Assembly (NCBI GenBank): GCA_963667785.2
Contig: CAXXMU010000002.1
Span: 352,001-416,000, forward strand
Source: Alphaproteobacteria bacterium
GTDB taxonomy: Bacteria; Pseudomonadota; Alphaproteobacteria; UBA828
Length of the DNA: 64,000 nucleotides
Reading direction: 5' to 3'
Shown here: in pieces, positions 1 to 26,889 of the stretch
How the letters are laid out: each line of letters begins with the position of its first letter
Numbering within the stretch: position 1 is the first letter of the stretch
Notes under the pieces: model-generated
The model's database searches: none
Seen by the model: the letters and a program-made list of their open reading frames with translations, nothing else
What the model was told of the DNA's origin: nothing
Position numbers and translations under genes: made by a program

Positions 1-1
1 G

Positions 2-1036: not shown

Positions 1037-1038
1037 CC

Positions 1039-1833: not shown

Positions 1834-1978
1834 CGCGTTTCCGCTTCACACGGAAACGCGCTCGCTCTTTGTCGCTCACGGCAGCCGGCCTTCAGCCGGC
1901 GCCTCCGCGAGGGCGCCGCATGCGCGGCGGGCCGCAGTCGCGGCCTGTCGCGTGTCCGCCAAAAGCGGACACGCGCTA
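1831..1978. repeat. palindromic intergenic element (MITE/REP-like) with terminal inverted repeats; probable bidirectional terminator
   Basis: Begins TAGCGCGTTTCCGCTT and ends AAGCGGACACGCGCTA (inverted, 1 mismatch). Each end forms its own hairpin (GCGCGTTTCCG/CGGAAACGCGC and CGCGTGTCCGC/GCGGACACGCG). The terminal TAG and CTA are the stop codons of the two convergent genes. Confidence 0.65.
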
Positions 1979-2665
1979 AATCACCAGGCGGTAGCCGCCG
2001 CCCTCGGTGACCAGCAGGCGGGGATCGGAGGGCTCCGGCTCGATCTTCTGCCGCAGCCGGTAGATGTGGGTTTCCAGCGTGTGGGTGGCGACGTTGGCGT
2101 TGTAGCCCCACACCTCGCTCAGCAGCACGTCGCGGGCGATCGCCCGGTCGCGCGCCCGGTAGAGGTACTTGAGGATCGCCGCCTCCTTCTCGGTGAGCCT
2201 GATCTTGCCGGTGCCGTTCGGCCGGATCAGCAGCTTCGACGCCGGCCTGAAGGTGTACTGGCCGATGGTGAAGGTCGCGTCCTCGCTGTGCTCGTGCTGG
2301 CGAAGCTGGGCGCGGATGCGCGCGAGCAGCGCGCCGAGGCGGAAGGGCTTGGTGACGTAGTCGTTGGCGCCGGAATCGAGGCCGAGGATGGTGTCGGCCT
2401 CGCTGTCGGCGGCGGTCAGCATGATGATCGGCACGGCGATCCCGCTCCGGCGCACGAGCTTGCAGACCTCCCGGCCATCCATGTCGGGCAGCCCGATGTC
2501 CAGCAGGATCAGGTCGAAGCCCCCGCCCTTGACCGCTTCCAGCGCCTCCCGGCCGGTGGCCGCCTCGCTCGCCGCGAACTCCTCGTACATGTGGAGCTGC
2601 TCGGCCAAGGACCGGCGCAGCGCCTGGTCGTCGTCGACGATGAGGATGGTCTTGCGGGCGCTCAC
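1976..2665 (-). CDS. cenR: OmpR-family response regulator, CenR/OtpR-like
   Basis: Receiver (IVDDD, LLDIGLPD, GANDYVTKPF) plus winged helix with alphaproteobacterial CenR-type segments RAQLRQHEHSEDA and THTLETHIYRLRQKIEP; GTG start chosen. Confidence 0.8.
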   Translation of the reverse strand: MSARKTILIVDDDQALRRSLAEQLHMYEEFAASEAATGREALEAVKGGGFDLILLDIGLPDMDGREVCKLVRRSGIAVPIIMLTAADSEADTILGLDSGANDYVTKPFRLGALLARIRAQLRQHEHSEDATFTIGQYTFRPASKLLIRPNGTGKIRLTEKEAAILKYLYRARDRAIARDVLLSEVWGYNANVATHTLETHIYRLRQKIEPEPSDPRLLVTEGGGYRLVI

Positions 2666-2839
2666 GGCAGCGTTCCCATGGCGGCGTTCAGTCTTTCGCC
2701 GCACTATAGCACGACGCCGGCCCGTTGGAGGTGCCTGCGCAGGTGGCCGGCCTGCGGGCTGCCGGCATTCCCGCGCGGCGAGCGCCGTGATAGGGTGCGG
2801 CGAACTCTCCGGCGTTCACCCTATCAGGCGGGAATCATT

Positions 2840-3724
2840 ATGAAAGCGCTCCCCGCAACGCTTCTTGCGATCGCACTCGCGTCGACCCTTGCCGCCTGCG
2901 GGGGCGGGGGCAAGCGAGCGCCCAGCATCGAGGAAATCCGGGAGCTGACCGGCCTGTCCGCGCCGGCCGAGACGCCGGGGGCCCAGCGCGTGCGAGCGCC
3001 GGACATCGAAGCGCGCGCCGATTCCCTGATCCTGTCCACGGTACACGGGGAGACGAGCCTCGCCGAGGTTCCCACTTTTCGATTGGAGTCACGATGCAGC
3101 GGAACCCGGTGCACGATATCCGAGTCGAGCATCGGCCTCTCAGACACCATAGAGCTGTCCGACCTCGAGCCCGTGGAAGGCGCCGCCGACGCGATCGGTA
3201 CCAGGTACGGCATCACCCTGATGTCGCAGACCGCGGAGCTGATGGACGCGAGATTCGTTTCGTTCGGCGCGTGGATGGAGCACGGCGCATTCGCGGTCCA
3301 GACCGAGGACGGCACGCTTGAAGGGACCAGGATCAGCGCCCGCTACGCAGCGGCCGGGGGAGACCTCACGGGAGCGGCGCCGGCCGGGAGCGCAACCTGG
3401 CGCGGCCTCATGGTCGGAACGCCGGCCACGGGGAGCAGCCGCGGCGACCGGCTGCAGGGTATTGCGGCCCTGAACTACGACATGAATGCCGGCGGCGGGC
3501 TCGACGTCGCCTTCAGCAGCATCACGAACATCGAGCGCGGAACGGCGCACTCGACGGCCACCGTGATCTTCGCCGACGTGCCGATCGGGTCGGACGGGAC
3601 GTTCGAGACCGGCTTGGCCGGCAACCGCATCCAGGGCGGCTTCTACGGCCCCGGCCACGCCGAGGCGGCGGGCATCTTCGAGCAGTCGAACATCGTCGGC
3701 GCGTTCGGGGCGACGCTCCAGTAG
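2840..3724 (+). CDS. surface lipoprotein with transferrin-binding-protein-like C-terminal beta-barrel
   Basis: Signal peptide with lipobox LAAC followed by GGGG; C-terminal GGFYGPGHAEAAGIFEQSNIVGAFGA typical of TbpB-like barrels. Confidence 0.7.
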   Translation: MKALPATLLAIALASTLAACGGGGKRAPSIEEIRELTGLSAPAETPGAQRVRAPDIEARADSLILSTVHGETSLAEVPTFRLESRCSGTRCTISESSIGLSDTIELSDLEPVEGAADAIGTRYGITLMSQTAELMDARFVSFGAWMEHGAFAVQTEDGTLEGTRISARYAAAGGDLTGAAPAGSATWRGLMVGTPATGSSRGDRLQGIAALNYDMNAGGGLDVAFSSITNIERGTAHSTATVIFADVPIGSDGTFETGLAGNRIQGGFYGPGHAEAAGIFEQSNIVGAFGATLQ

Positions 3725-3791
3725 GAAGGGGGCCGTACGCCGGTTGTCGGGATGGCAACAGGGGGCGGCGCGAGCCCCTGGACCGAAGGGC

Positions 3792-3864
3792 GCAAGAGAA
3801 AACTCCGGACGTCCGGGGCTTTCTGGACCTCTGCGGGAACCCGCGGTCTACCGGAATGGTGGAG
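3792..3864 (+). repeat. 73-bp direct repeat, copy 1 (putative att site: tRNA-Ala 3' 8 nt plus trailer/terminator)
   Basis: 63/73 identical, ungapped, to 33476..33548 (hand alignment). Confidence 0.85.
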
Positions 3865-4291
3865 GCGGGGTCTGCCAAGAAATGCACGCAACATAGTGAT
3901 ATAGAGTTCTATTCTTAGATATCGGTTCGCTCGCCCCCATAGTCGTGCCCACGCTGGAGGCGAGCAGAGGCGCAACCCGCAACGGTGGGTTCTACAATGA
4001 AATCTTATGGGTGCTATCAGCATGATGTCTTGGACGCTATATGATCGAATTGCATAGATTGCGTCTTGTCTGGAGTCGTACCGGCCCCGTCGGTACCGCG
4101 ACCTTCCCGAAGTTGGAGGCACAGGCATGGAGATTCGCGGCAGGTGGGAGCGCGAAGGGGCGCGCATTCGCGCCGCCGCAGGAGCCCTCGTGATGCCGGC
4201 GGGCGGGCGCGCGACGTTGCCGGCGGGGCCTCTCGGGCATCCCGCGACATGGGATCGGTCCCCCCGGTCCGCCTGACGGGAATCGACGTCG

Positions 4292-5452
4292 ATGACTTCG
4301 GGATCGAGCATACCGGCGGGTTCTTCGACGCCGCCCGTGTTCGTGACCGGTTCGGCCGGGCATGTCGGCGCCAACCTCGTGCGCCGGCTGCTCGACGAGG
4401 GCGTGCCGGTCCGGGTGCTGCTGAGACACGGCGACAACAACGAGGGCCTGGAGGGTCTCGAGGTCGAGCGCGCCTACGGCGACATTCGCGATCTGGATGA
4501 CACCAGGCGGGCGATCGCGGGGTGTCGGGGCGTCTATCACTGCGCGGCCTACGTCTCGACCATCGCAGGCAACCGCGCCCATCGCCGCGACCTGTTCGAG
4601 TGCAACGTTCTCGGCACCCGCAACGTGCTGCAGGCGGCGCGGGAGGCGGAGGCCGGCCGGGTGGTCGTGACGGGCTCGTTCAGCGCGGTCGGATACGACC
4701 TGGACGATCCGTCCGCTCCCAGCAACGAGACCATGCAGTTCTATCCCATGGAGCGCACGATGCCCTACGAGCGCAGCAAGTCGCTCGTCGAGCAGGAGTG
4801 CTGGCGCGCGGCGGCAACGGGACAGGACGTGGTGGTCGCAACCTGTTGCGCGGTGGTGGGGGGCGCCGACTTTCTCCCCTCGCGGCTGGGAAGAACCCTG
4901 TGCGACTACACCAACGGCAAGCTCCGTGCCTATGTCGATGGCGGGTTCGAGTTCGTCGCGGCCCGCGACATCGTCGAGGGGCACCTGCTCTGCATGCGCC
5001 ACGGCCGCTCGGGCGAGAAGTACATCTTCAGCACAGAGTACAAGACCATCTCGGATATCCTGGATCTCTTCGAGGAGGTCTCGGGCGTCCCGCGGCCGCG
5101 CCGGCGCATGCCGACCCGCCTCATGCTCGTCTTTTCGGAAATCGCGAGCTTCTATCTGAGCCGGGTCCACCCGGGCTTTCCCCAGCGCTTCACGCCCGGC
5201 GCCATCCGCCTGTTGCAAAAGCGCCGGCACGCCGACATCGGCAAGGCGAAGCGGGAGCTCGGCTATCGGCCGACCGGCCTCCGCGCCGCGGTGCACGAGG
5301 CCTACGCGTTCCACTACGGCCGCGACAAGATCGCGAACCCGCACGCGAAGCGCCCGCGCGAGGACGACGCGAGGCACCGTGTCGCGTCAGAGGAGGGCGA
5401 TCCCGCGCCGGACCAGGGCATGCGGATGATGGCAGGCGGGAGCGCGACATGA
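4292..5452 (+). CDS. extended SDR (3-beta-hydroxysteroid dehydrogenase/decarboxylase-like; SdmB-like)
   Basis: VTGSAGHVG Rossmann motif, YERSK catalytic YxxxK; first gene of the sterol operon. Confidence 0.75.
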   Translation: MTSGSSIPAGSSTPPVFVTGSAGHVGANLVRRLLDEGVPVRVLLRHGDNNEGLEGLEVERAYGDIRDLDDTRRAIAGCRGVYHCAAYVSTIAGNRAHRRDLFECNVLGTRNVLQAAREAEAGRVVVTGSFSAVGYDLDDPSAPSNETMQFYPMERTMPYERSKSLVEQECWRAAATGQDVVVATCCAVVGGADFLPSRLGRTLCDYTNGKLRAYVDGGFEFVAARDIVEGHLLCMRHGRSGEKYIFSTEYKTISDILDLFEEVSGVPRPRRRMPTRLMLVFSEIASFYLSRVHPGFPQRFTPGAIRLLQKRRHADIGKAKRELGYRPTGLRAAVHEAYAFHYGRDKIANPHAKRPREDDARHRVASEEGDPAPDQGMRMMAGGSAT

Positions 5453-6546
5453 AGGCGGCGCTACGCGAACCGCCCGGCTTCGAGGATGCCGGCAACCTGC
5501 GCCAGCAGGCGCGCGCCGCGGGCATGGACCCGAATTACTGGTATCCGGTCGAGGAGGTGCGCCGGATCAAGCCGGAGACGGTGGTCGAGGTCGTTTTCTG
5601 GAAGCGCTCCATCGCGCTCTTTCGCGGAAGGGACGGCACCTTCCAGGCGGTCGAGGATCGCTGCGCGCATCGCCAGCTCAAGCTCTCCCTCGGCGACGTG
5701 CAGGGATGCCGGCTGGTCTGCGCCTATCATGGCTGGGAGTACGGCGGGGAGGGGCGTCCCGCCGGGGTGCCCCACGACCCCGAGGGGCGAAGCTTTCCGA
5801 AACTCGCGCTCAAGACCTACCCGGTGAAGGTCCGCTACGGTCTGATCTGGCTCTTCCCGGGGGATCCGGCGCTGGCGGAGGTACGCCGGATCCCGGATAT
5901 TCCCGAGCTCGAGGGACGCGGCCGCTGGGCCTGCGTGCCGCTCTGCTTCACGTGGTCGGCTCACCACTCGATGGTGATCGACAACGTGAGCGACTTCACC
6001 CACGCACATCTGCACCGCCGCTACCGGCCCTTCGACGGGGCCACCCTCACCCGCTGCGAGACCCTCGGCGACAACGTGCATCTCGCCTACGACACGCACG
6101 TCGGGCGCGGGCGTATCTCCGGACTCTTCGTCGATCATCGGCGGCTCGATACCAACCGCATGGAGCTCTGCTACGAGTACCCCTACCAGTGGTCGAACAC
6201 CGACGACGCGATCAAGCACTGGCTCTTCGTGCTGCCGGTCGATGAGCGCACCAGCCGGGTGTTCTTCCTGTTCTACTTCAAGTCTCTGAAGGTTCCGTTG
6301 CTGCCCGTGCGCATTCCCCGCTTCGCCATGACCGCGGTGATGAAGGTCTCCAACCGCCTGCTCATCGCGCCCCTGCTCACCCAGGACCAGTTCGCGCTGG
6401 AGGCGGAGCAGGAGGGTTACGAGAAACACTGGGAGGCCCGTCCCGTCGAGTTCAATCCGGTGGTCAAGGCCTTTCAGAAGGTGACCGTGCGCAAGTGGCA
6501 GGAGCATCTGGCGCGCGAGACGGAGGCCGGCGATGCCGCCGCCTGA
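5449..6546 (+). CDS. Rieske non-heme iron oxygenase (sterol C4-methyl oxidase SdmA-like)
   Basis: CAH...CAYHGW Rieske cluster motif, DNVSDFTHAHLH mononuclear iron motif; ATGA overlap with the SDR gene. Confidence 0.75.
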   Translation: MKAALREPPGFEDAGNLRQQARAAGMDPNYWYPVEEVRRIKPETVVEVVFWKRSIALFRGRDGTFQAVEDRCAHRQLKLSLGDVQGCRLVCAYHGWEYGGEGRPAGVPHDPEGRSFPKLALKTYPVKVRYGLIWLFPGDPALAEVRRIPDIPELEGRGRWACVPLCFTWSAHHSMVIDNVSDFTHAHLHRRYRPFDGATLTRCETLGDNVHLAYDTHVGRGRISGLFVDHRRLDTNRMELCYEYPYQWSNTDDAIKHWLFVLPVDERTSRVFFLFYFKSLKVPLLPVRIPRFAMTAVMKVSNRLLIAPLLTQDQFALEAEQEGYEKHWEARPVEFNPVVKAFQKVTVRKWQEHLARETEAGDAAA

Positions 6547-7633
6547 AGCGCTCGACCTCTCGTCGGCGCTCTCGGGCGAGACCCTGCTCGAGGCCGCGGC
6601 GATGGTGCTGGGGTTCATCGCCCTCCTTTTCGTGACGTCGCTGATCCTGCCAGGGCGCCGCATCACGGGCCCGGATGCCGACGGGAACGAGCGCGTCTAC
6701 AAGCTCAACGGCCTCGCGCTCTTTGTCATCACCTTGCTCGTTGCGGGCCTCGCCCAGGGCTTCGGCTGGTTCTCCCTCTCGGTGCTGCATACCCACCTGC
6801 TCGCCCTCTTCGTCGTGGCGAACGGATTCGCGTTCGCTTTCTCCGGCTGGCTCTACCTGCGCGGGGTGCTCAGGCCCCGTTCGGAGTCCGGGTCCTGGCG
6901 GGACTTTTTCGACGGGGTGGATGCCGCTCCGTACTGGCTCGGGCTGGATATCAAGCTCTTCAGCTACTGCCCCTCCCTCATCGGCCTGGCGCTCTTCAAC
7001 GCATCGTTTGCCGCCGTGCAGTACGAGACCTACGGCGAGCTGACCCTGGCGATGATGCTCTATCAGACCTTCACGTTCCTGTACGTGCTCAACTACTTCC
7101 AGTTCGAGCAGGGGATGATCCATACCTGGGACATCGTCCGCGAGCGCTTCGGCTGGAATCTGGTCTGGGGCGACTACGTGCTGGTGCCCTTCTTCTACTG
7201 TCTCCCCGGCTGGTGGCTGGTCCACGCGCCGGAGCCGCTGTCGCCGGCCGCCGCCGCCGGGATCGTCGTGCTCTTCCTGTTCGGCTTCTGGATCTTCCGT
7301 GGTTCCAACCAGCAGAAGCACCGCTTCAAGCGCGACCCCACTGTCAAGATCTGGGGGCAACCCGCCAAGACCCTGGACGGGCGCCTCCTCGTCTCCGGCT
7401 TCTGGGGCATCGGGCGGCACCTCAACTATACGGGTGAGATCTGCGTCTACCTCACTTTCGCCCTCACCACCGGGTTTGTCTCCTGGGCTCCGTTCCTGTT
7501 GCCGGCGTGGGTCGCGGGTCTGCTGTGGCACCGTTCGATACGCGACGAGCGCCGCTGCCGCGCCAAGTATGGCGAGCTGTGGGAGCGCTACACGCAGAAG
7601 GCCCGCTTCGCGATGCTGCCCTTCATCCACTGA
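6533..7633 (+). CDS. ERG4/ERG24-family sterol reductase, most like delta14-sterol reductase
   Basis: Multi-pass membrane protein with TWDIVRERFGWNLVWGDYVLVPFFY, LLVSGFWGIGRHLNYTGE and RDERRCRAKYGELWERY signatures. Confidence 0.88.
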   Translation: MPPPEALDLSSALSGETLLEAAAMVLGFIALLFVTSLILPGRRITGPDADGNERVYKLNGLALFVITLLVAGLAQGFGWFSLSVLHTHLLALFVVANGFAFAFSGWLYLRGVLRPRSESGSWRDFFDGVDAAPYWLGLDIKLFSYCPSLIGLALFNASFAAVQYETYGELTLAMMLYQTFTFLYVLNYFQFEQGMIHTWDIVRERFGWNLVWGDYVLVPFFYCLPGWWLVHAPEPLSPAAAAGIVVLFLFGFWIFRGSNQQKHRFKRDPTVKIWGQPAKTLDGRLLVSGFWGIGRHLNYTGEICVYLTFALTTGFVSWAPFLLPAWVAGLLWHRSIRDERRCRAKYGELWERYTQKARFAMLPFIH

Positions 7634-7641
7634 GAACGGAG

Positions 7642-9051
7642 ATGGCCAACCCATCCCATAGCATGGCGACCCTGCCTTCGGCGGATCTCCCACCGCGGGC
7701 GGACGAGACACTTCCCGAGCTCGCGGGCAGGTGGCCGCTGCTCGGCCATCTGCCCGAGTTCCAGAGGGATCCGGTCGCCATGTTGAGCCGCGGCTGGCGC
7801 GAGCATGGCGAGCTCTTCCGTTTCCGGCTCGGGACCCGCGCGTTCGTTCTCTTCACCGGGCCCCAGGCCCACGACTTCTATTTCAGGACGCCCGAGGAGC
7901 AGCTGAACGCCAAGGCCGTCTATCGCTTCACCGTCCCCATCTTCGGACGCGGCGTGGCCTACGACACCTCCCCCGACATCATGGCGGAACAGCTGGGCTT
8001 TCTCTTTCCGGCGCTCCGCGAAGCGGCCATGCGCAGGTTCGCCCTCATCATGTTCGAGGAAGCGTGGCAGTTCGCCGACGCCCTCGGCGACGATGGGGAA
8101 ATCGATCTGCCGCACGCGATGAACGAGCTCACGGTCAAGATCGCGAGCCGCTGCCTGATCGGACAGGAAGTCCGCGATCGGGTGGACACCGGCTTTGCCG
8201 AGACCTACCACGACCTGCAGAAGGGCATTAACACCCTGGGATTCTTCCTGCCCAATCTTCCCGTCGCGTCGCATCGAAAGCGCGACAGGGCCCGGCGACG
8301 GGTGGCGGAGCTCTTCGGGCAGATCATGGCGGCGCGCCGGGACGCCGGGGCCAGCCCCGACGACTTCATGCAGACGCTCATGGACGCCCGGTACAAGAAC
8401 GGCCACTCTCTGAGCGACGACGAGATCACAGGGATCCTGCTGACGGTGCTGTTCGCGGGCCAGCACACCAGCGCGGTGCTCGCGACCTGGACCGGTCTGG
8501 AGCTTTTCAGGGCGCCATCCTACCTGGCGCGGGTGAGAGACGAGGCAGAGGACGTCTACCGCGAAGCGGGGTCCATGAGCATCGACAGCCTCCAGCGCCA
8601 GCCGGCTCTGGAGAACGCCGTCCGCGAGTGCGAGCGGCTGCACCCGCCGCTGATACTGCTGGTCCGAAAGGTGCTCGAGCCCCTGCGCTATGGAGAGCGC
8701 GTCGTGCCTGCCGGCACCATGGCCATGGTGTCGCCGGCGGTCTCGCACCGCCTGCCCCACATCTTCGCCGACCCGGAGCGCTTCTTCCCCGACCGCTTCG
8801 CGTCTCCCGCCTGCGAGGACAAGCAACACCGCTACGCCCTGATCGGCTTCGGCGGCGGCAAGCACGCGTGCATGGGGAAGAATTTCGCGTACATGCAGCT
8901 CAAGGCGATCTGGACCGTTCTGCTCGATCGCTTCGAGTTCTCCCCCAGCGGCGCCTTTCCGCGTCCGAACTACGGTAGCTGGGTGACGGGACCCGAGAGA
9001 CCGTGCCGCGTCCGCTACCGTCGTCGCTCGCAGCCGAGCGTCTTCCGATGA
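7642..9051 (+). CDS. cyp51: cytochrome P450 sterol 14-alpha-demethylase
   Basis: SRS1 YRFTVPIFGRGVAYD, I-helix LFAGQHTS, ExxR (ECER), heme motif FGGGKHACMG; GGAG RBS. Confidence 0.92.
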   Translation: MANPSHSMATLPSADLPPRADETLPELAGRWPLLGHLPEFQRDPVAMLSRGWREHGELFRFRLGTRAFVLFTGPQAHDFYFRTPEEQLNAKAVYRFTVPIFGRGVAYDTSPDIMAEQLGFLFPALREAAMRRFALIMFEEAWQFADALGDDGEIDLPHAMNELTVKIASRCLIGQEVRDRVDTGFAETYHDLQKGINTLGFFLPNLPVASHRKRDRARRRVAELFGQIMAARRDAGASPDDFMQTLMDARYKNGHSLSDDEITGILLTVLFAGQHTSAVLATWTGLELFRAPSYLARVRDEAEDVYREAGSMSIDSLQRQPALENAVRECERLHPPLILLVRKVLEPLRYGERVVPAGTMAMVSPAVSHRLPHIFADPERFFPDRFASPACEDKQHRYALIGFGGGKHACMGKNFAYMQLKAIWTVLLDRFEFSPSGAFPRPNYGSWVTGPERPCRVRYRRRSQPSVFR

Positions 9052-12000
9052 GCGGCGCCGCGTCGCGGCGTTACGACGTGGCCATTGTCGGCGCGGGGCC
9101 GGTGGGGAGCCTGTGCGCGCTCGCTCACGCACGGAAGGGCGCCCGGGTGGCCCTGCTGGAAGCGAACCCCAAGGCGTCCGGGCGCCTGGCGGGCGAATGG
9201 CTGCATCCGCCTGGCGTGCGGATACTGCAGCACTTCGGGATCGGGCTCGACACCCTGCCTCGCAGCACCGCGGGCAAGGGATTCGTGGTATTTCCCGATG
9301 ACGGCTCGGAGCCGATCGTCCTTCCCTACTTGAACGGCTCGCAGGGTCTGGCCTGCGAACATGCGCTGCTCGTCTCGAAGCTGCGGGAAGCCGCGGAGAA
9401 CGAGACGGATGTGGACTTCTTCACCCACGCGCGGGTGAGTGCGGTCGAAGACGGGCGGTTGGCCTATACCAACAACGGCACGGTTCACTCCGTCGACGCC
9501 GAGCGGATCATCGGCGCCGACGGGCGGGCGTCGGTCGTGCGCCAGTCCCTGGGCCTGTCGACGGAGCCGGTTCACTGCTCGCGGATGCTGGGGATCACCG
9601 TGAGCGACGTGAGCCTGCCCTTCGAGGGTCACGGGCACGTGCTGCTCGGCGGGCCGGGGCCGATTCTCGCATACGGTCTGGCAAACGATTGCGTCCGGAT
9701 CATCGTCGACGTTCCGCTGGACCGTTGGACACGCCAGGATCGGGTCGGCTTCCTGACGGAATCCTATGCAACGCTGCTGCCGGAGGCTCTCATGCCGGCG
9801 TTCGTCGACGCGGTGCGCGCGGGGCAATTCCACGTTGCGGCCAATCAGTTGCGGCCGCGCGTCACGTACGGCACCCCGCGTCGCGTGCTGATCGGCGACG
9901 CGGCCGGGCACTACCATCCGATGACGGCGGTCGGCATGACCCTCGGCTTTGGCGATGCGCTTGCCCTCGCCGAGGGCGGGAGCTTTCGCGACTTCGCCGC
10001 CGGGCGTTTCCGGGCGACCCGCGTGCCGGAGATGCTCGCCATGGGGCTCTACGAGGTCTTTGCCGATCATCGGGCCGAGGCGGTGGCGATGAGACACGCG
10101 GTCTACTGGGGATTGCGGGCGAACTCCGATTACCGGGAGCGGACAACGCGGATTCTCGCCTGCGAAGACCGATCCGCGTTCGTCATGGGTCTCGCGTTCT
10201 TCGGAACGGCGGCCCGGGCGGCGGTCGTGGAGATTCCGCTCTCCTTCCGCCGGTTCGCGCCGCGTCAGGGCCTGAAGATCTTCGGTGCGCTCACCGTTCG
10301 TCTCTTGTGGCTCCTGCGCTGGGCTCTGCAGCTGCGCCAGTCGCGACGCCAGGGCGGGCAGAATGACGAGCGGGCCCTGGACAGCCTGTCCCGCGCGCTT
10401 CTGCACTCCATGCCGCCGAGGCTCGACGCGTCCGGGCAAGGCCGGCCGAAGGACGCCGAGGCGGCCGACGCCGGTCCGGCCTTGAGGAGCGCGACCGCGC
10501 GCCTCCTGAGTCTCCAGGGCGAGGACGGTGGCTGGGAAGGCGAGATGGTCTGGTGCCCCATGCTCACCGCGCAATACGTGCTGCTGCACCACATCATCGG
10601 GCGGCCGCTCGAGCCCGGCCGGCGCCGGCGCGTGCTGCGCTCCTTCGAACGAACTCGTCTCGAAGGCGGCTCATGGGGCCTGCACGAGCATTCTACGCCC
10701 CACCTCTTCGTCACCGCCCTGGTCTACGTCGCCGCCCGGCTGCTCGGGGTCGAGCGGGACGATCCCCTGGTCGAGCCGGCCCGGCGCTTCATTGAGGCCG
10801 AGGGGATCGTGGGCATTCCCAGCTGGGGGAAGTTCTGGCTGGCGCTCCTGAACCTCTACGACTGGCGCGGGGTCAACGCCGTTCTGCCGGAGCTGTGGAG
10901 CCTGCCGCGGCGCTTGCCCCTGCACCCCTCGAATTGGTACTGCCACACCCGGCTCATCTACATGGCCATGGCGGCGATCTACCCGCACCGCTTCCAGGCG
11001 CCCGTCACGCCCTCGATCGCGGCGCTGCGGGAGGAGCTGTACCCCCAGGGATTTGCCGAGGCGGATTTCTCCGCCGCCCGCGACCGCCTGCGGGAGGCCG
11101 ACCTCTACGCACGGCCGAGCGTGTGGCTCAAGGTTGGATACAAGATTGCGCGCGTGTTCGATCGGCTCCACGGCAAGCGCCTGCGCGCCCGTTGCACGGA
11201 GGCGATCGTCAGGCAGATCAGATGGGAGCTGCGAACCACCAGCCATACGAGCATCTCTCCGGTGAGCGGCCTCCTCAACATGCTTGCGCTCTGGCTGCGC
11301 GATCCGGACGATGCCGACCTCCACCGGGCGCTCGCGAAGCTGGACGACTGGATCTGGGAAGACGAGGACGAGGGCGCGCGCGTCGTCGGCGCGAGAAGCG
11401 CCTCGTGGGACAGCGGCTTCGCGCTGCAGGCGCTGGCGGCGGTGCCCGCGTTCGACGGGGTGGGGGACGCGCTGCGGCGCGGCGCCGACTTCCTGCTCGG
11501 GGAGCAGATCGCCGCCAGCTTCGACGGGTTTCGCGAGGCCTATCGTACCGACCCCAGGGGCGGCTGGTGCTTTGCCGGGGGGTGGCACGGCTGGCCGGTG
11601 AGCGACTGCACCGCGGAAGCGGTGCTCGGACTTCACGCCGCCGGTCGTGGCGCCACGCACGCGGGCGCGTTGCGCGATGCGGTCGGGTTCATGCTGCGCT
11701 GCCAGAACCGCGACGGCGGATTCGGCAGCTACGAGGCGCGGCGCTCGGCGTTCGGTCTGGAGTGGATGAATCCGGCCGAGATGTTCGGCGACTCGATGAC
11801 CGAGCAATCCTACGTCGAGTGCACCGCGTCCTGCCTCGCGGCGCTCGCCGCCTGCGTGGAGGAGGTTCCGCACATCGCGGACGGAGCGGTGACGGGCGCG
11901 ATCGCTCGGGGCGATGCCTGGCTGCGCCGGACTCAGGCGAGCGACGGCTCGTGGCGCGGCGTGTGGGGGGTTCAGTTCATCTACGGCACGCTCTTCGGGG

Positions 12001-12473
12001 TCAGGGGTCTTCTCGCCGCCGGGGCCGGCCCCGGCGATCCGGCGCTGCGCTCGGCCTGCCGCTGGCTGCTGGAGCGCCAGCGGGCAGATGGGGGATGGGG
12101 CGAGCACCACAGCGGATGCCTGAGCGGCCGATACGTCCCGCACGAGGAAAGCCAGGTCATCCAGACCGCGTGGGCGTTGATCGCGCTGCTCGAGGCGGGC
12201 GAATCGAACTGGACCGCGATTGCGCGGGGCGCCCGCTTCCTGCTCGACACGCTGGACGGGGACGGGACATGGCCCAAGCAGGACATGGTGGGCGTGTTCT
12301 TCCGAACGGCGCTCCTGGACTACGTGCTCTATCGACAGTATTTCCCGCTGCACGCGCTGGCCCTCTACGAGCAGCGCCGCCGAGAGCGGCTGGGCCTCGC
12401 CGCCCCCGCCGCCTGCACCACCGCCGCACCGCCGCCCCCGCCCGAAGCGGCTGCCGCCTGTTCGCTTTCCTGA
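9048..12473 (+). CDS. squalene epoxidase (monooxygenase) - oxidosqualene cyclase fusion protein, 1141 aa
   Basis: N-half: GAGPVG FAD fold, GEWLHPPG, DGRASVVR, GDAAGHYHPMTAVGMT. C-half: QW repeats (QGEDGGW, QNRDGGF, QASDGSW, QRADGGW), PSWGKFWL, WYCHTRLIY, VSDCTAE, YVECT. One uninterrupted frame. Confidence 0.92.
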   Translation: MSGAASRRYDVAIVGAGPVGSLCALAHARKGARVALLEANPKASGRLAGEWLHPPGVRILQHFGIGLDTLPRSTAGKGFVVFPDDGSEPIVLPYLNGSQGLACEHALLVSKLREAAENETDVDFFTHARVSAVEDGRLAYTNNGTVHSVDAERIIGADGRASVVRQSLGLSTEPVHCSRMLGITVSDVSLPFEGHGHVLLGGPGPILAYGLANDCVRIIVDVPLDRWTRQDRVGFLTESYATLLPEALMPAFVDAVRAGQFHVAANQLRPRVTYGTPRRVLIGDAAGHYHPMTAVGMTLGFGDALALAEGGSFRDFAAGRFRATRVPEMLAMGLYEVFADHRAEAVAMRHAVYWGLRANSDYRERTTRILACEDRSAFVMGLAFFGTAARAAVVEIPLSFRRFAPRQGLKIFGALTVRLLWLLRWALQLRQSRRQGGQNDERALDSLSRALLHSMPPRLDASGQGRPKDAEAADAGPALRSATARLLSLQGEDGGWEGEMVWCPMLTAQYVLLHHIIGRPLEPGRRRRVLRSFERTRLEGGSWGLHEHSTPHLFVTALVYVAARLLGVERDDPLVEPARRFIEAEGIVGIPSWGKFWLALLNLYDWRGVNAVLPELWSLPRRLPLHPSNWYCHTRLIYMAMAAIYPHRFQAPVTPSIAALREELYPQGFAEADFSAARDRLREADLYARPSVWLKVGYKIARVFDRLHGKRLRARCTEAIVRQIRWELRTTSHTSISPVSGLLNMLALWLRDPDDADLHRALAKLDDWIWEDEDEGARVVGARSASWDSGFALQALAAVPAFDGVGDALRRGADFLLGEQIAASFDGFREAYRTDPRGGWCFAGGWHGWPVSDCTAEAVLGLHAAGRGATHAGALRDAVGFMLRCQNRDGGFGSYEARRSAFGLEWMNPAEMFGDSMTEQSYVECTASCLAALAACVEEVPHIADGAVTGAIARGDAWLRRTQASDGSWRGVWGVQFIYGTLFGVRGLLAAGAGPGDPALRSACRWLLERQRADGGWGEHHSGCLSGRYVPHEESQVIQTAWALIALLEAGESNWTAIARGARFLLDTLDGDGTWPKQDMVGVFFRTALLDYVLYRQYFPLHALALYEQRRRERLGLAAPAACTTAAPPPPPEAAAACSLS

Positions 12474-12520: not shown

Positions 12521-13552
12521 TCAGTCGCGCGAGTGCCCGGGCTTGCGGGCCAGGAAATAGAACATCGGCGTGAAGACGCCGGACCTGCCGCCGTCCACCA
12601 GCGCGTCCGCCCCCGCATTCAGGATCGTGCTGACCGCGCGGGCGCCCTCGGGAAAGAGCCGCAGCCTCTCGCCGACCCGCAAGGTCAGATTGGTCAGCGC
12701 GCGGCCGAGTGGCGTGCGCGGAATGCTCGAAAGGTTGAGGTCACGGCCCTGCAAGGCACGGTACCAGGGCATCGCCGGGTCCGCTTCGGGCGCGCGGTCG
12801 CGCGCTTCCAGCAGATCGAACCCCGCCCTTTGCAATGCGGCGGAAACCTCCGACGTGGTCGCGATATCCGGCAGCCCATTGCCGATCATGATGTCGTTCT
12901 TGATTCGCAGGTGCTCCGCGTTGGCGGGATCGAATTTCTCGGTGAGGCACCACTCGTAGCCCGCGAAACAGGCCCCCGGACGCAGCACGCGCAGAACCTC
13001 GCGGAACGCGCCCGTCTTGTCGGGCGCGTGGGGCATGGACTCGATCGCGATGGCAGCATCGTAGCGGCCGTCTTCGTCGGGAATCTGCATGTAATCGCCG
13101 TGAATGAAGCGGCACAACGATTCCACATCGCGGGTGTGAAGTTTGGCGCGCTCGATCTGATAGGCGTTATTGTTGATGCCGACAAAGCTGGCCCCGGTTC
13201 GGCGCGCCAGATTGCCCATCGGCCCGCCGACCCCGCATCCGACATCGAGCACGTGCATACCCGGCTTCAGGGACAGCTCTTCAGCCAGAAAATGCTGGTG
13301 CCGGAGCAGCGATGCCTTGAAGCTCTCGCCCCGCCTTCGGGGAGCGAAGTGAAAGGACTGACCCCAGCCGAACTCGTAGAAGTCGGTGACCAGGTCGTAG
13401 TAGCGATTCACGAAGGAGCGATAATGCTCCTTCCTGCGCTCCGGGCCGGCGTCGTAGATTTCGGTGTATTCGTCGACGGTGGGCTTCACCTCGTCCGGGG
13501 CAAGGTCCGCGAGGGTGCGCGGTTTCGATCGCGTGGCGGAAGGACGATTCAT
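12521..13552 (-). CDS. smt: sterol C24-methyltransferase (SMT/ERG6-like)
   Basis: YYDLVTDFYEFGWGQSFHFAP (region I), LDVGCGVGGP (SAM binding), IESMPHAP (region III variant), YEW (region IV), C-terminal FTPMFYFLARKP. Confidence 0.92.
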   Translation of the reverse strand: MNRPSATRSKPRTLADLAPDEVKPTVDEYTEIYDAGPERRKEHYRSFVNRYYDLVTDFYEFGWGQSFHFAPRRRGESFKASLLRHQHFLAEELSLKPGMHVLDVGCGVGGPMGNLARRTGASFVGINNNAYQIERAKLHTRDVESLCRFIHGDYMQIPDEDGRYDAAIAIESMPHAPDKTGAFREVLRVLRPGACFAGYEWCLTEKFDPANAEHLRIKNDIMIGNGLPDIATTSEVSAALQRAGFDLLEARDRAPEADPAMPWYRALQGRDLNLSSIPRTPLGRALTNLTLRVGERLRLFPEGARAVSTILNAGADALVDGGRSGVFTPMFYFLARKPGHSRD

Positions 13553-13740: not shown

Positions 13741-14475
13741 ATGCCAGAAGAGCAGGCGGACGGGGCCCCTTCCGAACCCGGCGCGCGCCGGGTTCGGTTG
13801 GCGATCCCGCCGATCGTGTTTACGGGGCTTGTCATCGCGAGTCTGACCGTGGCCGGTATCGGGGCGCGCTACGGCGTTCGCGGCGATTTCGACGTTATCC
13901 ATGGACTTCTGATCCTCTTCTTTTCCGTCAATCTGGTGATCTGCTATTGGGAAATCTGCCTGTTCTTCAGGCGCGACTACATCGAGAAGCGCGCCGAATA
14001 CTGGCATGAACGCCGGCAGAAAACAGGCCGAACGTCGGGCATCGAGTTCCTTACCGGACCTGTTCCGTTGAGGCGAATACTATCCTTGACGACATGGGCG
14101 GACGTCTGGGCCACGTATTCGCAGTTTGACACTTCGTACACCGACCGGCGCACATATGGTTACAACGTGGACATCGCCAACGGCTTCGTAACGCCGGTGC
14201 CGATGCTGATTCTTTTCGCCGCCTTCACCGTCGACTTCCTGCCCGCCCTCGTCGCCGGCATCATCGGGGCGATGATGTTCTGGCAGTTGGCCTACGCGAC
14301 ATCGGTCTATTGGGTCAGCTTCTTCGTGGCCAAGCGGCAGAGCCGCATCCGCCGAAAGGACCTCTACATCTACATCTGGGCTCTGAACTGCCCGTGGGTG
14401 CTGTTCGCCCTGCTGGGACTCTACGTCTCGATTCGCCTGATCGTGAACGGCGACTACAGCGTTCTCGGCTATTGA
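13741..14475 (+). CDS. integral membrane protein, EBP/EXPERA-like (candidate sterol delta8-delta7 isomerase)
   Basis: About 5 hydrophobic segments; WATYSQFDTSY resembles the EBP W..Y...D.RY motif; NxPW near the C-terminus; adjacent to smt. Confidence 0.55.
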   Translation: MPEEQADGAPSEPGARRVRLAIPPIVFTGLVIASLTVAGIGARYGVRGDFDVIHGLLILFFSVNLVICYWEICLFFRRDYIEKRAEYWHERRQKTGRTSGIEFLTGPVPLRRILSLTTWADVWATYSQFDTSYTDRRTYGYNVDIANGFVTPVPMLILFAAFTVDFLPALVAGIIGAMMFWQLAYATSVYWVSFFVAKRQSRIRRKDLYIYIWALNCPWVLFALLGLYVSIRLIVNGDYSVLGY

Positions 14476-14646
14476 TCGCGGCATTTCCAGATCGCCTTCG
14501 GCAAGGCAGACGGCGACACGTCCGGGCACGGCGCCGCCCCGCGCCGCCCGTTCCGCCGCCAGCCGAAGGGGCCTCGTCGTCGAACCTTTCCGCGCTCGAA
14601 GCTCAGACACCCCGCTGCTCGTCTTCCAGGAAAGTCGTCATAGCTC

Positions 14647-15018
14647 ATGCAGAAGACAGCCGTCATAGACGGTCTCCAGTACGCCAACTGGTCGGACAAG
14701 GTATTTCGACAGATGGGCGACAGACATGTCGTCGCCATCCATGTCACCATCTGCTACCACGAGAACTTTCGTGAAACCGTCGCGAACATTGCCGCCTGGA
14801 GCCGGCGTTTCGATCAGTTCTCCGAACTGATTTTCCCGCTCCACTCGGCGGACGATGTCGACAGGGCGATGAGGGAGGAACGCACGGCCATCGTGTTCGG
14901 CTGCCAGAACTGCTCGCCGATCGAGAACGACATCGATCTCGTTCGCATATGCCGGCCGCTCGCCCACGGCAGCTGGCTGCGCTTCTTCCGGGAGTCGTTC
15001 AGCCCGCAGGGCTCGTGA
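14647..15018 (+). pseudogene. membrane dipeptidase family gene with large in-frame internal deletion
   Basis: N-terminal IDGLQYANWS...HVTICYHENFRET...QNCSPIEND joined directly to a C-terminal-like WLRFFRESF; only 123 aa. Confidence 0.7.
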
Positions 15019-16727
15019 TGGGCTGTCCGGCCGATGACCGTGCGATCGCCCCGCTGCGCGCGCCCGAGCACGTCATGCGGCTGGCGCGCATGGGCGCGTC
15101 GTTCCAGACACGCCTGAGCTTCATGCGCCAGTTGATCCGCCGCATGCGAAGGGAGCGGTGGCGGTTCGAGCGCCTCCGTTTCGACCTCGACGCACGGGGA
15201 TACGGCACCGCCGTTTACGCGGCCCACGGCCCGCAGCGGACCTACTCGCTCATCGCGTACACGCACGAGATCCGTCCGGAGCAGCGCACCGACCGCGTGA
15301 TCGCGGAGGCCTGGGATGCCACGTTCTCGTTCTTCGACGGCGTGCCGGACGATGCGGATATCGAACGGTTGCGCGCCAACACGCCGAGGCAGGAGGACGG
15401 CCGCTTCACCTCCCGCGAGCTCACGCTGGCCCGCGCCAACAAGAGCATGCGCCTGTTCGAGCATGTCGTCGAAAGCCTCGCCGCCGGCCGACAGCCCGAC
15501 GCCGCCCGGCTGGCCGAGGTCGGCTACCTGATGCGCACGACGGCCGTCTATGGGAGCGGCAAGTTCGGTTGCGCCGACCGCGCCAAGATTGCGGACCGGA
15601 CCGAGATGCGCGGACCCTTCCAGGCCGAAATGCTCACGGTCTATCTGATCCGTTGGCTGAGCATCGACCTGGTCAACCACGTGGCGCGCGGCCGGGGCGG
15701 CGCGCGGGCCGCTCCTCTGAATGCCGACTACGCGCGCTATCTGGGCATCGGCAACGCCACCGGGCTGGGAATGGCTCCCTTCCTCATCAAGCACCCGGTG
15801 CTCATCAACAATTGGGTCCTGGCGCGGGAGACCGCGCTCGCGCGGGTGCGAGCGCTGCCGTCCGCGACCGCCGGTCAGGTCGCCGCCTTCATGGCCCTGC
15901 TGGACCGCGCCCGCCGCTTCGTCGGCGAGTGGAACGTCGACGACGAAGCCCAGACGGCGCGCATTCGCACGCTGCGTGCCGAGCTCGGCGAGCTGGAGAG
16001 CTGGTGCGAGGCCGGGCTTCGTCGCCCCCATCCGTGGGACGCGATGTACCGCCACGCCGAGGAAGCCTTCTCCGCCGAGGGGCAGGAGTTCGCCGTCTCG
16101 CTGCTGCTCGAGCAGCAGGGCCCGGTCGTGGACGCGCTCGGCGACGAGATGAGCGCCCCGGAGCCGCACAGGCTCAGGGCCGAGATGTCGCTGGGCGAGC
16201 TGCTCGGCATCATCGATGCGCATTATGGCTGGGCGTTGGCGACCGACTACTCGCGGCCCGAAGCCGTGCAGCGCTTCTGGTATTACTCCGAGGAGAAGCT
16301 CGAGCCTCGGGTGGGCGACCGCCACACCGAGCCCGGCGCCGACCTCGAAATGCCGATCGCGATCGCCCGGGACGTGAGCCGGCTCAGGGACCGGCTTCTC
16401 GAATACGACACGGCGCTGACGGTCGCCGACTTTCTCGTCGCCGCGCCGGAGTACCGCAGCATCGTCTGGCGGGTGCAGATGGCCTCGGACTGTCCCTACG
16501 GCGAGATCCGCGACAATCTGCTCGGCGCCGGCCAGCGCCCGGTCGACATCCTGCGCTTCAAGCTCTCGTTTTTCGGCGTCGCCAAGTTCGATCCGAAGTC
16601 CGATCTGTGGACGCGGGTCAACATGTATCAGGGCGCGCCGCTGCCGCAGGAGATCGCCGATGCGCGCGAGACCGAATGGGTGTTTCCGACAAGGCCCGCG
16701 GCACTGTCGGCCGAGGCGATGCCATGA
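15018..16727 (+). CDS. conserved hypothetical protein (alphaproteobacterial, usually beside dipeptidase and DUF3726 genes)
   Basis: Long ORF with good codon usage and conserved-looking blocks (GYLMRTTAVYGSGKFG, GIGNATGLGMAPFL, FWYYSEEKLEPR); TGATG overlap with upstream gene. Confidence 0.8.
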   Translation: MGCPADDRAIAPLRAPEHVMRLARMGASFQTRLSFMRQLIRRMRRERWRFERLRFDLDARGYGTAVYAAHGPQRTYSLIAYTHEIRPEQRTDRVIAEAWDATFSFFDGVPDDADIERLRANTPRQEDGRFTSRELTLARANKSMRLFEHVVESLAAGRQPDAARLAEVGYLMRTTAVYGSGKFGCADRAKIADRTEMRGPFQAEMLTVYLIRWLSIDLVNHVARGRGGARAAPLNADYARYLGIGNATGLGMAPFLIKHPVLINNWVLARETALARVRALPSATAGQVAAFMALLDRARRFVGEWNVDDEAQTARIRTLRAELGELESWCEAGLRRPHPWDAMYRHAEEAFSAEGQEFAVSLLLEQQGPVVDALGDEMSAPEPHRLRAEMSLGELLGIIDAHYGWALATDYSRPEAVQRFWYYSEEKLEPRVGDRHTEPGADLEMPIAIARDVSRLRDRLLEYDTALTVADFLVAAPEYRSIVWRVQMASDCPYGEIRDNLLGAGQRPVDILRFKLSFFGVAKFDPKSDLWTRVNMYQGAPLPQEIADARETEWVFPTRPAALSAEAMP

Positions 16728-17467
16728 GCGAGACGCTGACGCCTTTGTCTCTGAACGAGATCTGCTTCTACTTCACGCGGGCGGCGGTGGGTGCCGGTGC
16801 GCCGTTCGGGATCGGCGAGGACTTTGCGGAGGCGTCGAAGTCTCTGGCCTATCTGGGCTTCGATCCGGCCCAGGCTGCCGTGCCGGCTTTGCGCGGACTT
16901 AGCTGCGGCCTGAGCGGCACGTCGCTCTCGCTGCGCACTGCGGGGGATGCCATTCATGTCGGGAGCAGTGACGCTCCCATCCTGTCCGCGCTCTACGCCG
17001 GGCCGGTGGCCGCCGACCGGCTGTCGATCGAGGCGGGGTGCGGCAGGGAGCGGCATCTCCGACTCGACGACACGGACCAGCCGCTGCTGATCGTGGGGGC
17101 GATTGCTGCAGCGGGCATCGATAAAGCCCGGATCGCCCTGTCGTGGCCGTTGCGGAACGGCAGACGCGCCGTGGTCGAGCTGAACGGCGGCATCGCGACA
17201 ATCGCCGGCCTGTATTCCCGAAGCGTCGCATCGCTTGAGCCTGCACCGGTCGACATCCTCCTCAACGGCACGCCTCTCGAGATGGAGCCCGCGCGCACGG
17301 CGACGAGGAGTCTCGCGGAGGGCAGGTCCAAGTCAGTCCGCCACGGTGTCGACGTGGACGAGGTGGCAAGGTCGACGGTGCTGGCGTTCTTCGAAAAGTG
17401 TCTCGTGCCTGCCACCGATCGGTCCCGCGATGCCGGGGCCGGGGCCGGTCTCACCGACAACGACTGA
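16724..17467 (+). CDS. DUF3726-like protein
   Basis: N-terminal SLNEI...RAAVGAG.PFGIGED and C-terminal PAT..SR..GAGAGLTDND; ATGA overlap. Confidence 0.7.
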   Translation: MSETLTPLSLNEICFYFTRAAVGAGAPFGIGEDFAEASKSLAYLGFDPAQAAVPALRGLSCGLSGTSLSLRTAGDAIHVGSSDAPILSALYAGPVAADRLSIEAGCGRERHLRLDDTDQPLLIVGAIAAAGIDKARIALSWPLRNGRRAVVELNGGIATIAGLYSRSVASLEPAPVDILLNGTPLEMEPARTATRSLAEGRSKSVRHGVDVDEVARSTVLAFFEKCLVPATDRSRDAGAGAGLTDND

Positions 17468-17715
17468 GGCACCGTCACCCGACCCCGTACGGGGCCAGTC
17501 GGTGCGACGCCATGCTGGGCCTCTGCGGCAATGCGCCTCGCCTCCGGAATAATTCACATGAATCGAGAGAAACATGAGAACACGGTCGTTTCGGCGTCGC
17601 CGAGCGTCGTGTATTCCGCGCGGCCGAGGTGTACGAAACAGCGAGCCCGTGGCGCGGCCGCCGGTCAGCCCCTAGACTCAGTGTCGGCTGCAATCCGGCC
17701 GAAGGAGCGCCGCCG

Positions 17716-18603
17716 ATGGCTCGTATCGACATTCAGTTCACCCTGTTCTCCGCCTTCTACTCGCCGCTGATCGCGACGATGGCAGGCGGGTTCCTGGCCG
17801 AGGAAGGTCTGGAGGCGGAGTGGTCGGTCGCACCGCCGGGAGGTTCCGCCATCGCGGCTCTGAAAGACGGCGCGGCCCATGTCGTGCAGTCGGCGCCGAG
17901 CCAGGCCTTCGGGCCGCTGTCGAAGGGCGAGGACCCCGGCGTCGTCCACTTCGCTCAGATCAACGAGATGGACGGCTTTTTCCTCACCGGGCGGGCGGGC
18001 GACCCGGATTTCGACTGGCACAAGCTGGACGGCGCCGAGGTCGTGCTGTTCGGCGGTGGCCAGCCGCTCGCCATGTTCAAGTATGCCTGCCACAAGGCGG
18101 GTATCGATTACGGCCGGCTGAAGGCGATCCACCCCGGCAATGCCCTGGAGATCGACCGCGCCTTTCGCGACGGTGTGGGCCAGTATGTCCAGCAACAGGG
18201 ACCGTTTCCCCAGCAGTTGGAAGCGGATGGCATCGGCCGCGTCGTGGCGCAGGTCGGCCGGCAGGTCGGCCGCTGCGGCTTCTCCAGCTTGTGCGCTCGT
18301 CCGGATTGGCCAGAAACGCCCATGGCGCGGGCCTTCACACGCGCGTATCGCAAGGCGCGGCTCTGGCTCAACGAAACGCCGGCCGCCGAGGTCGCTCGTG
18401 CCGAGCAACCCTACTTTCCGGAGATCGGGCTGCCGGCGCTCGAACGCTGCATCGCTGCCTACCAGCAACTCGGCTGCTGGGCGCCGCATATCGAGATCAC
18501 CCGCGCAGCCTACGAGGCGACGCTCGATATCTTTGCTTACAACGGCCTGATCTCCGAGCGCTTCGCCTACGAGCGGGTCTGTGCAGCGCCGCCGGAGGAC
18601 TAG
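17716..18603 (+). CDS. NMT1/THI5-like ABC-type substrate-binding protein (no signal peptide evident)
   Basis: SAFYSPL...GFLAEEGL, HFAQINEMDGFFL; AAGGAG RBS. Confidence 0.75.
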   Translation: MARIDIQFTLFSAFYSPLIATMAGGFLAEEGLEAEWSVAPPGGSAIAALKDGAAHVVQSAPSQAFGPLSKGEDPGVVHFAQINEMDGFFLTGRAGDPDFDWHKLDGAEVVLFGGGQPLAMFKYACHKAGIDYGRLKAIHPGNALEIDRAFRDGVGQYVQQQGPFPQQLEADGIGRVVAQVGRQVGRCGFSSLCARPDWPETPMARAFTRAYRKARLWLNETPAAEVARAEQPYFPEIGLPALERCIAAYQQLGCWAPHIEITRAAYEATLDIFAYNGLISERFAYERVCAAPPED

Positions 18604-25390: not shown

Positions 25391-26082
25391 GGCGTACGCG
25401 GGCGTGGAGTTCGAGTATCACACCACCGGGGGCGAGGTGACGCGGCTCGAGTTGGGGCTCACCGCCGAAGACGTAACGGAGCCTGGAGCGCAACTGGCGC
25501 AGCTCGGCGAGGAACCGTGCTCGACCGAGCACTGACGGGGAAGCCGGGCGGAGGGCGATGTTCGGTGGCGAGACGTTCATCGTGCGAATCGACGAGGACG
25601 CCTTGGCCCCGCGCGGGCATGGCCGTGGCGTAGGTACGTGGCGGGAAAGCGGCTCCGCCGGCGCATTGACCGGTGCCGAGCCGTTACCAGCTGTTGCGAT
25701 GAGGGCGTAGGCGGCGAGCCGCGTCTCGTGCAGTTCAATGGCGGTGCTGGCCCTCGCGGGTGGACGCCTGCGCGGCATCTGGTATTCGTTCGGCGAAGCC
25801 GTGGTAGTTTGAGTGAGCGGCGGTTGTGTACGACCGCGCTGACCGGGAACCTCTTGGCCGCGCACCCGATCTCCTGCGCAGGCTCGGCGGTTCCACGGCT
25901 TGGCCGAACGGATTCCGCCGCAGAAGTCAGAAATGGGCTGGAGTTTACTTCTTCAAGCCTACTTGGTGTGTATGTTCCCAAATCCGCTGTCGCGGTCACA
26001 CTCGCGCTGTCTTCCAACCCATTGAGTTGAAACGACTATTCGTGTCAGCGCGGCAGGCCATACTAGTGGTGAGAAATACGGG

Positions 26083-26790: not shown

Positions 26791-26889
26791 CGAGGACTTG
26801 CTGATACCGGCGCGAGAACGCGTTGACGCCGCGAATTACCTGGATTCATAAGGGCCCCCATGCCGCAGACCACAGGCATGTCGACTGCC

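Follow-up and report, generated by a model that had tools for sequence, protein, structure and literature searches.

The window analyzed here is a 64,000-nucleotide stretch of an alphaproteobacterial genome of the lineage UBA828 (GenBank assembly GCA_963667785.2, contig CAXXMU010000002.1, positions 352,001 to 416,000), and all coordinates are counted from its first letter. It contains a gene in which squalene epoxidase (SE) and oxidosqualene cyclase (OSC) are fused. The fusion is encoded by a single uninterrupted open reading frame (ORF) on the + strand at 9048-12473, corresponding to 1141 residues from the ATG at 9048. The frame is open from 8979, with the first GTG at 9003 and the stop codon at 12471-12473. 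GC content at its three codon positions is 0.72/0.52/0.87 in a window of ~68% GC, and this composition fits a real high-GC gene.

The Pfam search found FAD_binding_3 at residues 9-308 (87.9 bits) and the SE domain (PF08491) at residues 154-391 (84.1 bits, cut-off 20.1), which assigns the N-terminal half to the SE family. SQHop_cyclase_N at residues 480-774 (171.8 bits) and SQHop_cyclase_C at residues 784-1108 (174.7 bits), both with a cut-off of ~26, occupy the C-terminal half. The OSC half also passes TIGR01787, the broad squalene/oxidosqualene cyclase family of NCBIfam, with 496.4 bits against a cut-off of 322.7. A first-pass annotation, made from the sequence alone, had described this ORF as a natural SE-OSC fusion in one polypeptide, with intact flavin monooxygenase motifs, a polar linker and a complete cyclase. 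The two domain sets in one ORF, the motifs and the folds described below all agree with that description. GAGPVG is at residues 15-20, ADGRAS at 157-162, and GDAAGH at 283-288. The motifs quoted for the linker, QGGQNDE and DAEAADAGP, are at residues 435-441 (from nucleotide 10350) and 469-477 (to nucleotide 10478), and VSDCTAE of the cyclase is at residues 851-857.

The fusion is divided into five segments, all on the + strand. The SE catalytic core with the FAD and substrate domains corresponds to residues 1-376 (9048..10175), as supported by Pfam, the alignment to human SQLE, Foldseek and the ratio of nonsynonymous to synonymous substitution rates (dN/dS). Three long, partly hydrophobic helices (ALTVRLLWLLRW) close the SE half at residues 377-453 (10176..10406) in the structural model; these helices are inferred to be membrane-associated. 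A disordered polar linker of ~24 residues follows at residues 454-477 (10407..10478), as judged from the predicted local distance difference test (pLDDT), alignment and dN/dS. The OSC half with VSDCTAE spans residues 478-1112 (10479..12383), based on Pfam, TIGR01787, the human OSC structure 1w6k and dN/dS. The last segment is an unconserved Ala/Pro-rich tail, residues 1113-1141 and the stop codon (12384..12473), recognized from pLDDT, dN/dS and the alignment of 21 fused proteins (alignment A1), in which the tail is variable.

The same architecture is abundant in public genomes and metagenomes. All of the 120 protein clusters listed, which are the best 120 of 1323 matches among 8000 scored candidates, share the SE-OSC architecture at 69-96% identity and lengths of 996-1156 residues. 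In a scan with one genome per prokaryotic species, the alignments of the best 80 of 498 relatives start at residue 9 of the query or before, end at residue 1104 or beyond, and show 65-92% identity; many of these relatives are on complete chromosomes. Of the 21 genomes examined in the window's genus, 8 carry a full-length copy, the window's own genome (G000) among them, as against none of 20 genomes outside the genus. Three copies in the genus that had been flagged with an internal stop (L004, L006 and L007) are intact ORFs of 1150-1152 residues on inspection. The fused match in another genome of the genus (G014) is flagged with 2 internal stops. The most distant fused homologues, P0134 and P0136, are 38-39% identical, and their cyclase half looks decayed; in alignment A1, P0134 has VPCAKTTAE in place of VSDCTAE and several deletions.

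Read support across the linker had been proposed as a check on the fusion, and a stop or frameshift there as its refutation. Contigs of three sequencing runs traverse 10340-10480 with 0 gaps (X1 record 5, X4 records 20-22 and X9 record 31). None of the 5 listed indels falls between 10176 and 10478, and none of the 9 listed substitutions between 10199 and 10481 makes a stop; 6 of these 9 are synonymous. The aligned contigs are short unitigs from mixed populations, and with a best share of words of only 0.40 the runs may all come from samples other than the source. Run X2 has no cover in the bin 10313-10427, and none of the listed contigs alone spans the whole fusion gene. Twelve contig joints are listed, at 88% likeness and with short sides.

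An AlphaFold2 model of the fusion was built with 21 fused homologues and has a pLDDT of 81.7 and a predicted template modelling score (pTM) of 0.69. The Foldseek comparison of the OSC half with 1w6k gave a template modelling score (TMt) of 0.84 and a root-mean-square deviation (rmsd) of 2.4 Å over 658 columns. The closest structures to the SE half are human SQLE, 6c6r (TMt 0.82 over 469 columns) and 6c6n (TMt 0.82, rmsd 2.9 Å), and the next family is PqsL (TMt 0.73). The alignments to SQLE span 444-469 columns for a 450-residue target, and the SQLE-like fold includes the C-terminal helices. These helices are modelled at residues 377-401, 405-434 and 438-453, in a block of pLDDT ~50-65. pLDDT falls below 50 at residues 453-471 in the linker and at residues 1121-1141 in the tail. 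The linker columns are poorly conserved and variable in length in alignment A1.

Catalytic positions are retained in both halves. The SE half aligns with human SQLE 6c6n through the GxGxxG, RLAGEWLHP, DG and GD motifs. The OSC half matches 1w6k with an E-value of 9.3e-127, versus 8e-50 for squalene-hopene cyclase. In the alignment with 1w6k, D455 and C456 of human OSC correspond to D853 and C854 of the fusion, which are at least 90% conserved in the 21 fused proteins, and a Cys is also present at human position 533. The OSC half keeps His at human position 232 (WYCHTR), Tyr at 503, Trp at 581 and Phe at 696, and Val851 is at the position of human Val453. We take the human residues at these aligned positions to have the roles assigned to them in the OSC literature.

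Purifying selection acts on both halves. The comparison with four genomes of the same genus gave dN/dS of 0.18-0.29 for the SE core, 0.11-0.15 for the OSC half, 0.14-0.69 for the linker, without gaps, and 0.44-0.84 for the tail. L009, L010 and L013 were left out of this comparison, and L005 and L008 represent the same genome. Judged from these sequences and the model, both halves look functional.

The fusion is the fifth and last gene of an operon of overlapping or abutting genes on the + strand. The first gene (4292..5452) encodes an SdmB-like NAD(P)-dependent sterol C-4 demethylation protein, with Epimerase (116 bits) and 3Beta_HSD (65 bits) matches in Pfam. Its best NCBIfam match is NF052578 SdmB at 295 bits, under the 600-bit cut-off. 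Its stop codon and the start codon of the next gene share the ATGA at 5449-5452. The second gene (5449..6546) encodes an SdmA-like Rieske oxygenase of the 4-methylsterol monooxygenase type, with Rieske and VanA_C in Pfam, and its best NCBIfam match is NF052579 SdmA at 398.7 bits, also under the 600-bit cut-off. The third gene (6533..7633) encodes a delta14-sterol reductase of the ERG24 type (ERG4_ERG24, 230 bits in Pfam; E-value 3.1e-67 to Delta(14)-sterol reductase 4quv in PDB); it begins with the ATG at 6533, before the sdmA-like gene ends with its stop at 6546. The fourth gene (7642..9051) encodes CYP51, sterol 14alpha-demethylase (p450, 194 bits in Pfam). Its ORF is open from 7507, and the likely start is the ATG at 7642 behind GGAG. 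The top 56 rows among the best 60 of 241 PDB matches are all CYP51 or sterol 14alpha-demethylase, the best being 6mcw (E-value 4.7e-106). Convergent with the fusion, on the - strand, is the gene for a sterol C-24 methyltransferase (SMT) at 12521..13552, with Sterol_MT_C (69.9 bits) and Methyltransf_11 (63.4 bits) in Pfam. The SMT ORF is open to 13711, and its start was placed at MNRPS by inference.

These partners accompany the fusion elsewhere. Of the 85 related loci, at least 62 have a homologue with at least 50% cover for SdmB, 63 for SdmA, 65 for ERG24, 71 for CYP51 and 58 for SMT; these counts are lower bounds, as many loci are short. The window's own genome has 4 SQS_PSY genes for the supply of squalene. 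The fusion is the only SQHop_cyclase_C match in this genome, which is 98% complete, and hopanoids may have been replaced by sterols there. Elsewhere in the genus, whether or not the fusion is present, the majority of genomes contain a sequence that is ~30% identical to the cyclase half and resembles squalene-hopene cyclase.

Next to the SMT gene and divergent from it is a gene for a 244-residue multi-helix membrane protein (13741..14475, + strand). It has no Pfam match at E ≤ 0.001, and a profile search against PDB sequences gave nothing significant. Its score to EXPERA (PF05241) is 7.8 bits against a cut-off of 25.7, and only 5 of 16 homologues match this family at all, with a best E-value of 0.39. 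The model of the protein (pLDDT 76.7, pTM 0.74) has the EBP/EXPERA fold. VIA-align placed human EBP 6oht at the top (Z 14.8, rmsd 2.7 Å, 176 of 206 residues), followed by the sigma-2 receptor 7m93 (Z 10.8), and the next row has Z 8.5. Foldseek gave 8w0r with an E-value of 0.043 and TMt of 0.61, and all rows other than EBP have TM ≤ 0.31. In Atlas, 22 of 30 feature look-alikes of the protein belong to the EBP set. A homologue of the protein is beside the fusion or the SMT gene in at least 30 of the 85 related loci, from several phyla. L038, L041, L047, L055, L078, L079 and L082 were left out of the alignment of this protein (alignment A2). Based on the modelled fold, the protein is a candidate bacterial sterol delta8-delta7 isomerase. 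Hoshino and Gaucher (2021) inferred that EBP arose within eukaryotes; their supplement refers to "three uncharacterized genes" next to SMT, and the EBP-fold gene may be one of these.

Beyond these genes, no tRNA adjoining the cluster was found in a tRNA scan. The flanks in the window (1-4291 and 14476-18603, with a response regulator, a 592-residue ORF and NMT1) have no counterparts in the 6-kb flanks of the clusters of three loci from the same genus (L008, L009 and L012). The cluster thus resides in different neighbourhoods within one genus. The 592-residue ORF (14949-16727, + strand) was considered as a cluster member and rejected, as it belongs to no Pfam or NCBIfam family and has homologues in none of the 85 related loci. 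Its composition is coding-like, with a GC content at third codon positions (GC3) of 0.84, and it probably represents a genuine gene, of unknown family, that has no relation to the sterol cluster. GC content falls to 0.578 at 26001-28000, versus 0.65-0.77 elsewhere in the window, and the ORFs there have GC3 of 0.71-0.72.

The fusion is distributed across diverse bacteria. The titles of related loci at 65-78% identity include Alphaproteobacteria, Gammaproteobacteria, Nitrospirales, Binatia, Thermodesulfobacteriota, Acidimicrobiia, Bryobacterales, Nitrospinaceae, and Rhodothermales. Such spread at this level of identity fits gene transfer. The fusion is associated with sponges; the titles of related loci include Spongia_Bin9, Ca. 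Porisulfidus and Ca. Poriferihabitaceae, and runs from sponge metagenomes contain the fusion gene, X1 and X9 giving 3 and 65 contigs, respectively, at 99% identity or higher. In a quick LG+G4 tree of 82 OSC domains from representatives at 50% identity, the 10 fused rows all belong to a single 15-row clade, for which the Shimodaira-Hasegawa-like approximate likelihood ratio test (SH-aLRT) support is 100. The nearest named unfused relative of this clade is the OSC from a metagenome-assembled genome (MAG) of Myxococcota (P0131).

Other natural fusions between enzymes of the sterol pathway were observed in public data outside the window (P0195, P0196, P0213, P0229, P0241, P0261 and P0198). One type, ~1080-1200 residues long, consists of SE, a middle region with a weak cyclase-like stretch, and then squalene/phytoene synthase; all 6 scanned long SE-matching proteins are of this type. 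The second is a 1022-residue protein composed of squalene synthase and cyclase.

The first-pass annotation had noted that the two enzymes are normally separate, implying that the fusion is rare or new. This does not hold; the fusion has been published and occurs abundantly in genomes from public databases. In a purely in silico work, Mohanty et al. (2020; Mar Drugs 18:124, PMC7074536) described it as msbE in the msbA-F locus (GenBank MT026193), whose source is a gammaproteobacterial symbiont of the sponge Melophlus sarasinorum, and made the same Val-based call of lanosterol for MsbE. As described there, the msb locus has the same gene order as the window: NAD(P) oxidoreductase, overlapping Rieske oxygenase, sterol reductase, 14-demethylase, fusion, and S-adenosylmethionine-dependent sterol methyltransferase, so that the genes of the window from SdmB to SMT take the positions of msbA to msbF, with SMT on the opposite strand. 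The likeness to MsbE is by gene order and description, and the host here is an alphaproteobacterium instead. The window differs also in having the EBP-fold gene beside SMT; the msbA-F genes as described include none.

Kelly et al. (2022; Microbiome 10:164, PMC9531527) reported clusters of steroid genes (CSGs) in 115 of 537 MAGs from Ircinia sponges, representing 10 phyla including Alphaproteobacteria. CSGs and the window share the ERG24-CYP51-LSS core, an upstream "DFR" with a hypothetical gene, and a downstream SMT1 on the opposite strand. According to that report, CSGs are under purifying selection (LSS omega 0.17) and horizontally transferred, and the best nr match is MT026193. The long gene is named LSS/ERG7 with a codon alignment of 3765 positions, and the epoxidase half is not mentioned in this description. 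Brown et al. (2023; Nat Commun 14:1859, PMC10070321), as well as its preprint, mentioned "fused SMO/OSC homologs" that were trimmed for the OSC tree. They have the same architecture and come from sponge-metagenome sterol clusters with SMT and sdmA/sdmB. The fusion appears there as a data-handling step only, and the function tests described are on SMTs. Among the papers searched, Mohanty et al. (2020) and Brown et al. (preprint and 2023) are the only ones to mention the fused form; term searches found no mention of it in the main texts of Hoshino and Gaucher (2021), Wei et al. (2016), Santana-Molina (2020) and a 2025 cyclase paper in MBE. The fusion architecture, the cluster and their spread are thus already known, in print and in databases, and the window adds one more copy.

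Separate enzymes catalyze the same two reactions in other organisms. In Methylococcus capsulatus, the neighbouring genes MCA2872 (SE) and MCA2873 (OSC) encode two polypeptides (Wei et al. 2016; PMC10070321). In human, SQLE and lanosterol synthase are separate proteins of the endoplasmic reticulum; in the structural alignment their identity is 21-22% to the SE half and 35% to the OSC half, respectively. Human OSC starts with 76 residues that lack a counterpart in the fusion, and the linker stands in their place.

It is very likely that the fusion is an msbE-type gene of a sponge-symbiont sterol cluster, whose single 1141-residue product acts as two tethered enzymes in series, with lanosterol the most likely product. 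The N-terminal flavin monooxygenase would convert squalene to 2,3-oxidosqualene. The C-terminal cyclase would then protonate the epoxide via the Asp of VSDCTAE and fold the chain to a protosterol, probably lanosterol as judged by Val851. Both parent enzymes, SQLE and OSC, act at the membrane surface and take their lipid substrate from the membrane. Because of this, and because a short disordered linker joins the cyclase to the three long helices at the end of the SE half, tethering is the most likely effect of the fusion. Tethering would fix the stoichiometry at 1:1 and place both active-site entrances on the same membrane patch, so that oxidosqualene would travel a very short distance in the bilayer. 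CYP51, delta14-reductase, the SdmA/SdmB-like proteins, SMT and the EBP-fold protein together would yield a demethylated, side-chain-methylated sterol.

Several observations weigh against this reading. The OSC half scores 747.1 bits to TIGR03463, the 2,3-oxidosqualene cyclase family of NCBIfam, under the curated cut-off of 851. Three product-linked positions differ from human OSC: Thr381, Cys449 and Tyr98 correspond to Ala782, His847 and Met500, respectively. For this reason, lanosterol is not a secure assignment, and the product could be parkeol, cycloartenol or another compound. Five unfused rows lie inside the fused clade, so the quick tree allows a single origin, not demonstrating it; a single fusion event followed by transfer is possible from the sequences. 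pTM is the only measure for the placement of the halves relative to each other in the model. No electron donor that would serve the SE half emerged from the analysis, and the listed runs that contain the fusion gene include no RNA run. Finally, no biochemical study of the fused form was found in the papers searched.

The first-pass annotation had suggested channelling of 2,3-oxidosqualene. In the strict form, docking of the two halves would create an uninterrupted hydrophobic path, and the intermediate would never leave the protein. The pTM of 0.69 is probably above the expectation for random placement of the halves in a two-domain model of 1141 residues, and the conservation of the fusion across many phyla also speaks for such docking. 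On the other side, the disordered linker differs in length between homologues and shows poor conservation, the parent enzymes draw their substrate from the membrane, and no evidence of an interface between SE and OSC emerged in this analysis. A complex prediction with the SE core (residues 7-372) and the OSC half (residues 478-1111), cut from alignment A1, gave 0.30 against a mark of 0.32 and is counted neither for nor against docking. As no biochemical test of the fusion was found in the literature searched, channelling is a guess. We consider it unlikely, and a sealed protein tunnel is less likely than tethering.

Less likely still is that the fusion is real and one half is inactive, or that the cyclase makes a product other than lanosterol or other than a sterol, such as cycloartenol, parkeol or an arborane-type triterpenol. 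The score below the TIGR03463 cut-off, the three differing positions and the decayed appearance of distant homologues such as P0134 are consistent with this alternative. Wei et al. (2016) also described a bacterium with SE and Osc genes and no detectable sterol. However, both halves are under purifying selection, every catalytic position checked is retained, and the position of human Val453 is occupied by Val. In addition, CYP51, delta14-reductase and the SdmA/B-like genes are sensible only for a protosterol with 14-methyl and 4,4-dimethyl groups. The weakest alternative, that adjacent SE and OSC genes only look merged because a stop or frameshift in the linker was lost through faulty sequencing or assembly, could appeal to the poor conservation of the linker and to the lack of a single listed contig over the whole gene, but is refuted for practical purposes by the 120 clusters with both domain sets, the 80 full-length genome loci, the intact ORFs of L004, L006 and L007, other copies from the genus without linker gaps, and the contigs of three runs across the linker.

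Tethering, the preferred effect of the fusion, may have a function beyond joining the two enzymes. We tentatively propose that the covalent tether hands over 2,3-oxidosqualene within one membrane patch or a docked interface, suppressing its escape and second epoxidation; this would be more doubtful than not. The fusion is, by its predicted activity, a compact part for converting squalene into protosterol. Whether clusters of this type could be a bacterial source of the sterols in sponges is under debate, as raised by Brown et al. (2023; PMC10070321). If the tether is functional, it would account for the spread of the fusion, rather than of separate genes, by transfer among sponge symbionts belonging to many phyla. 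The cluster with SMT and the EBP-fold isomerase would then be a compact transferable module for side-chain-alkylated sterols, which would bear on who makes the "sponge" sterol biomarkers.

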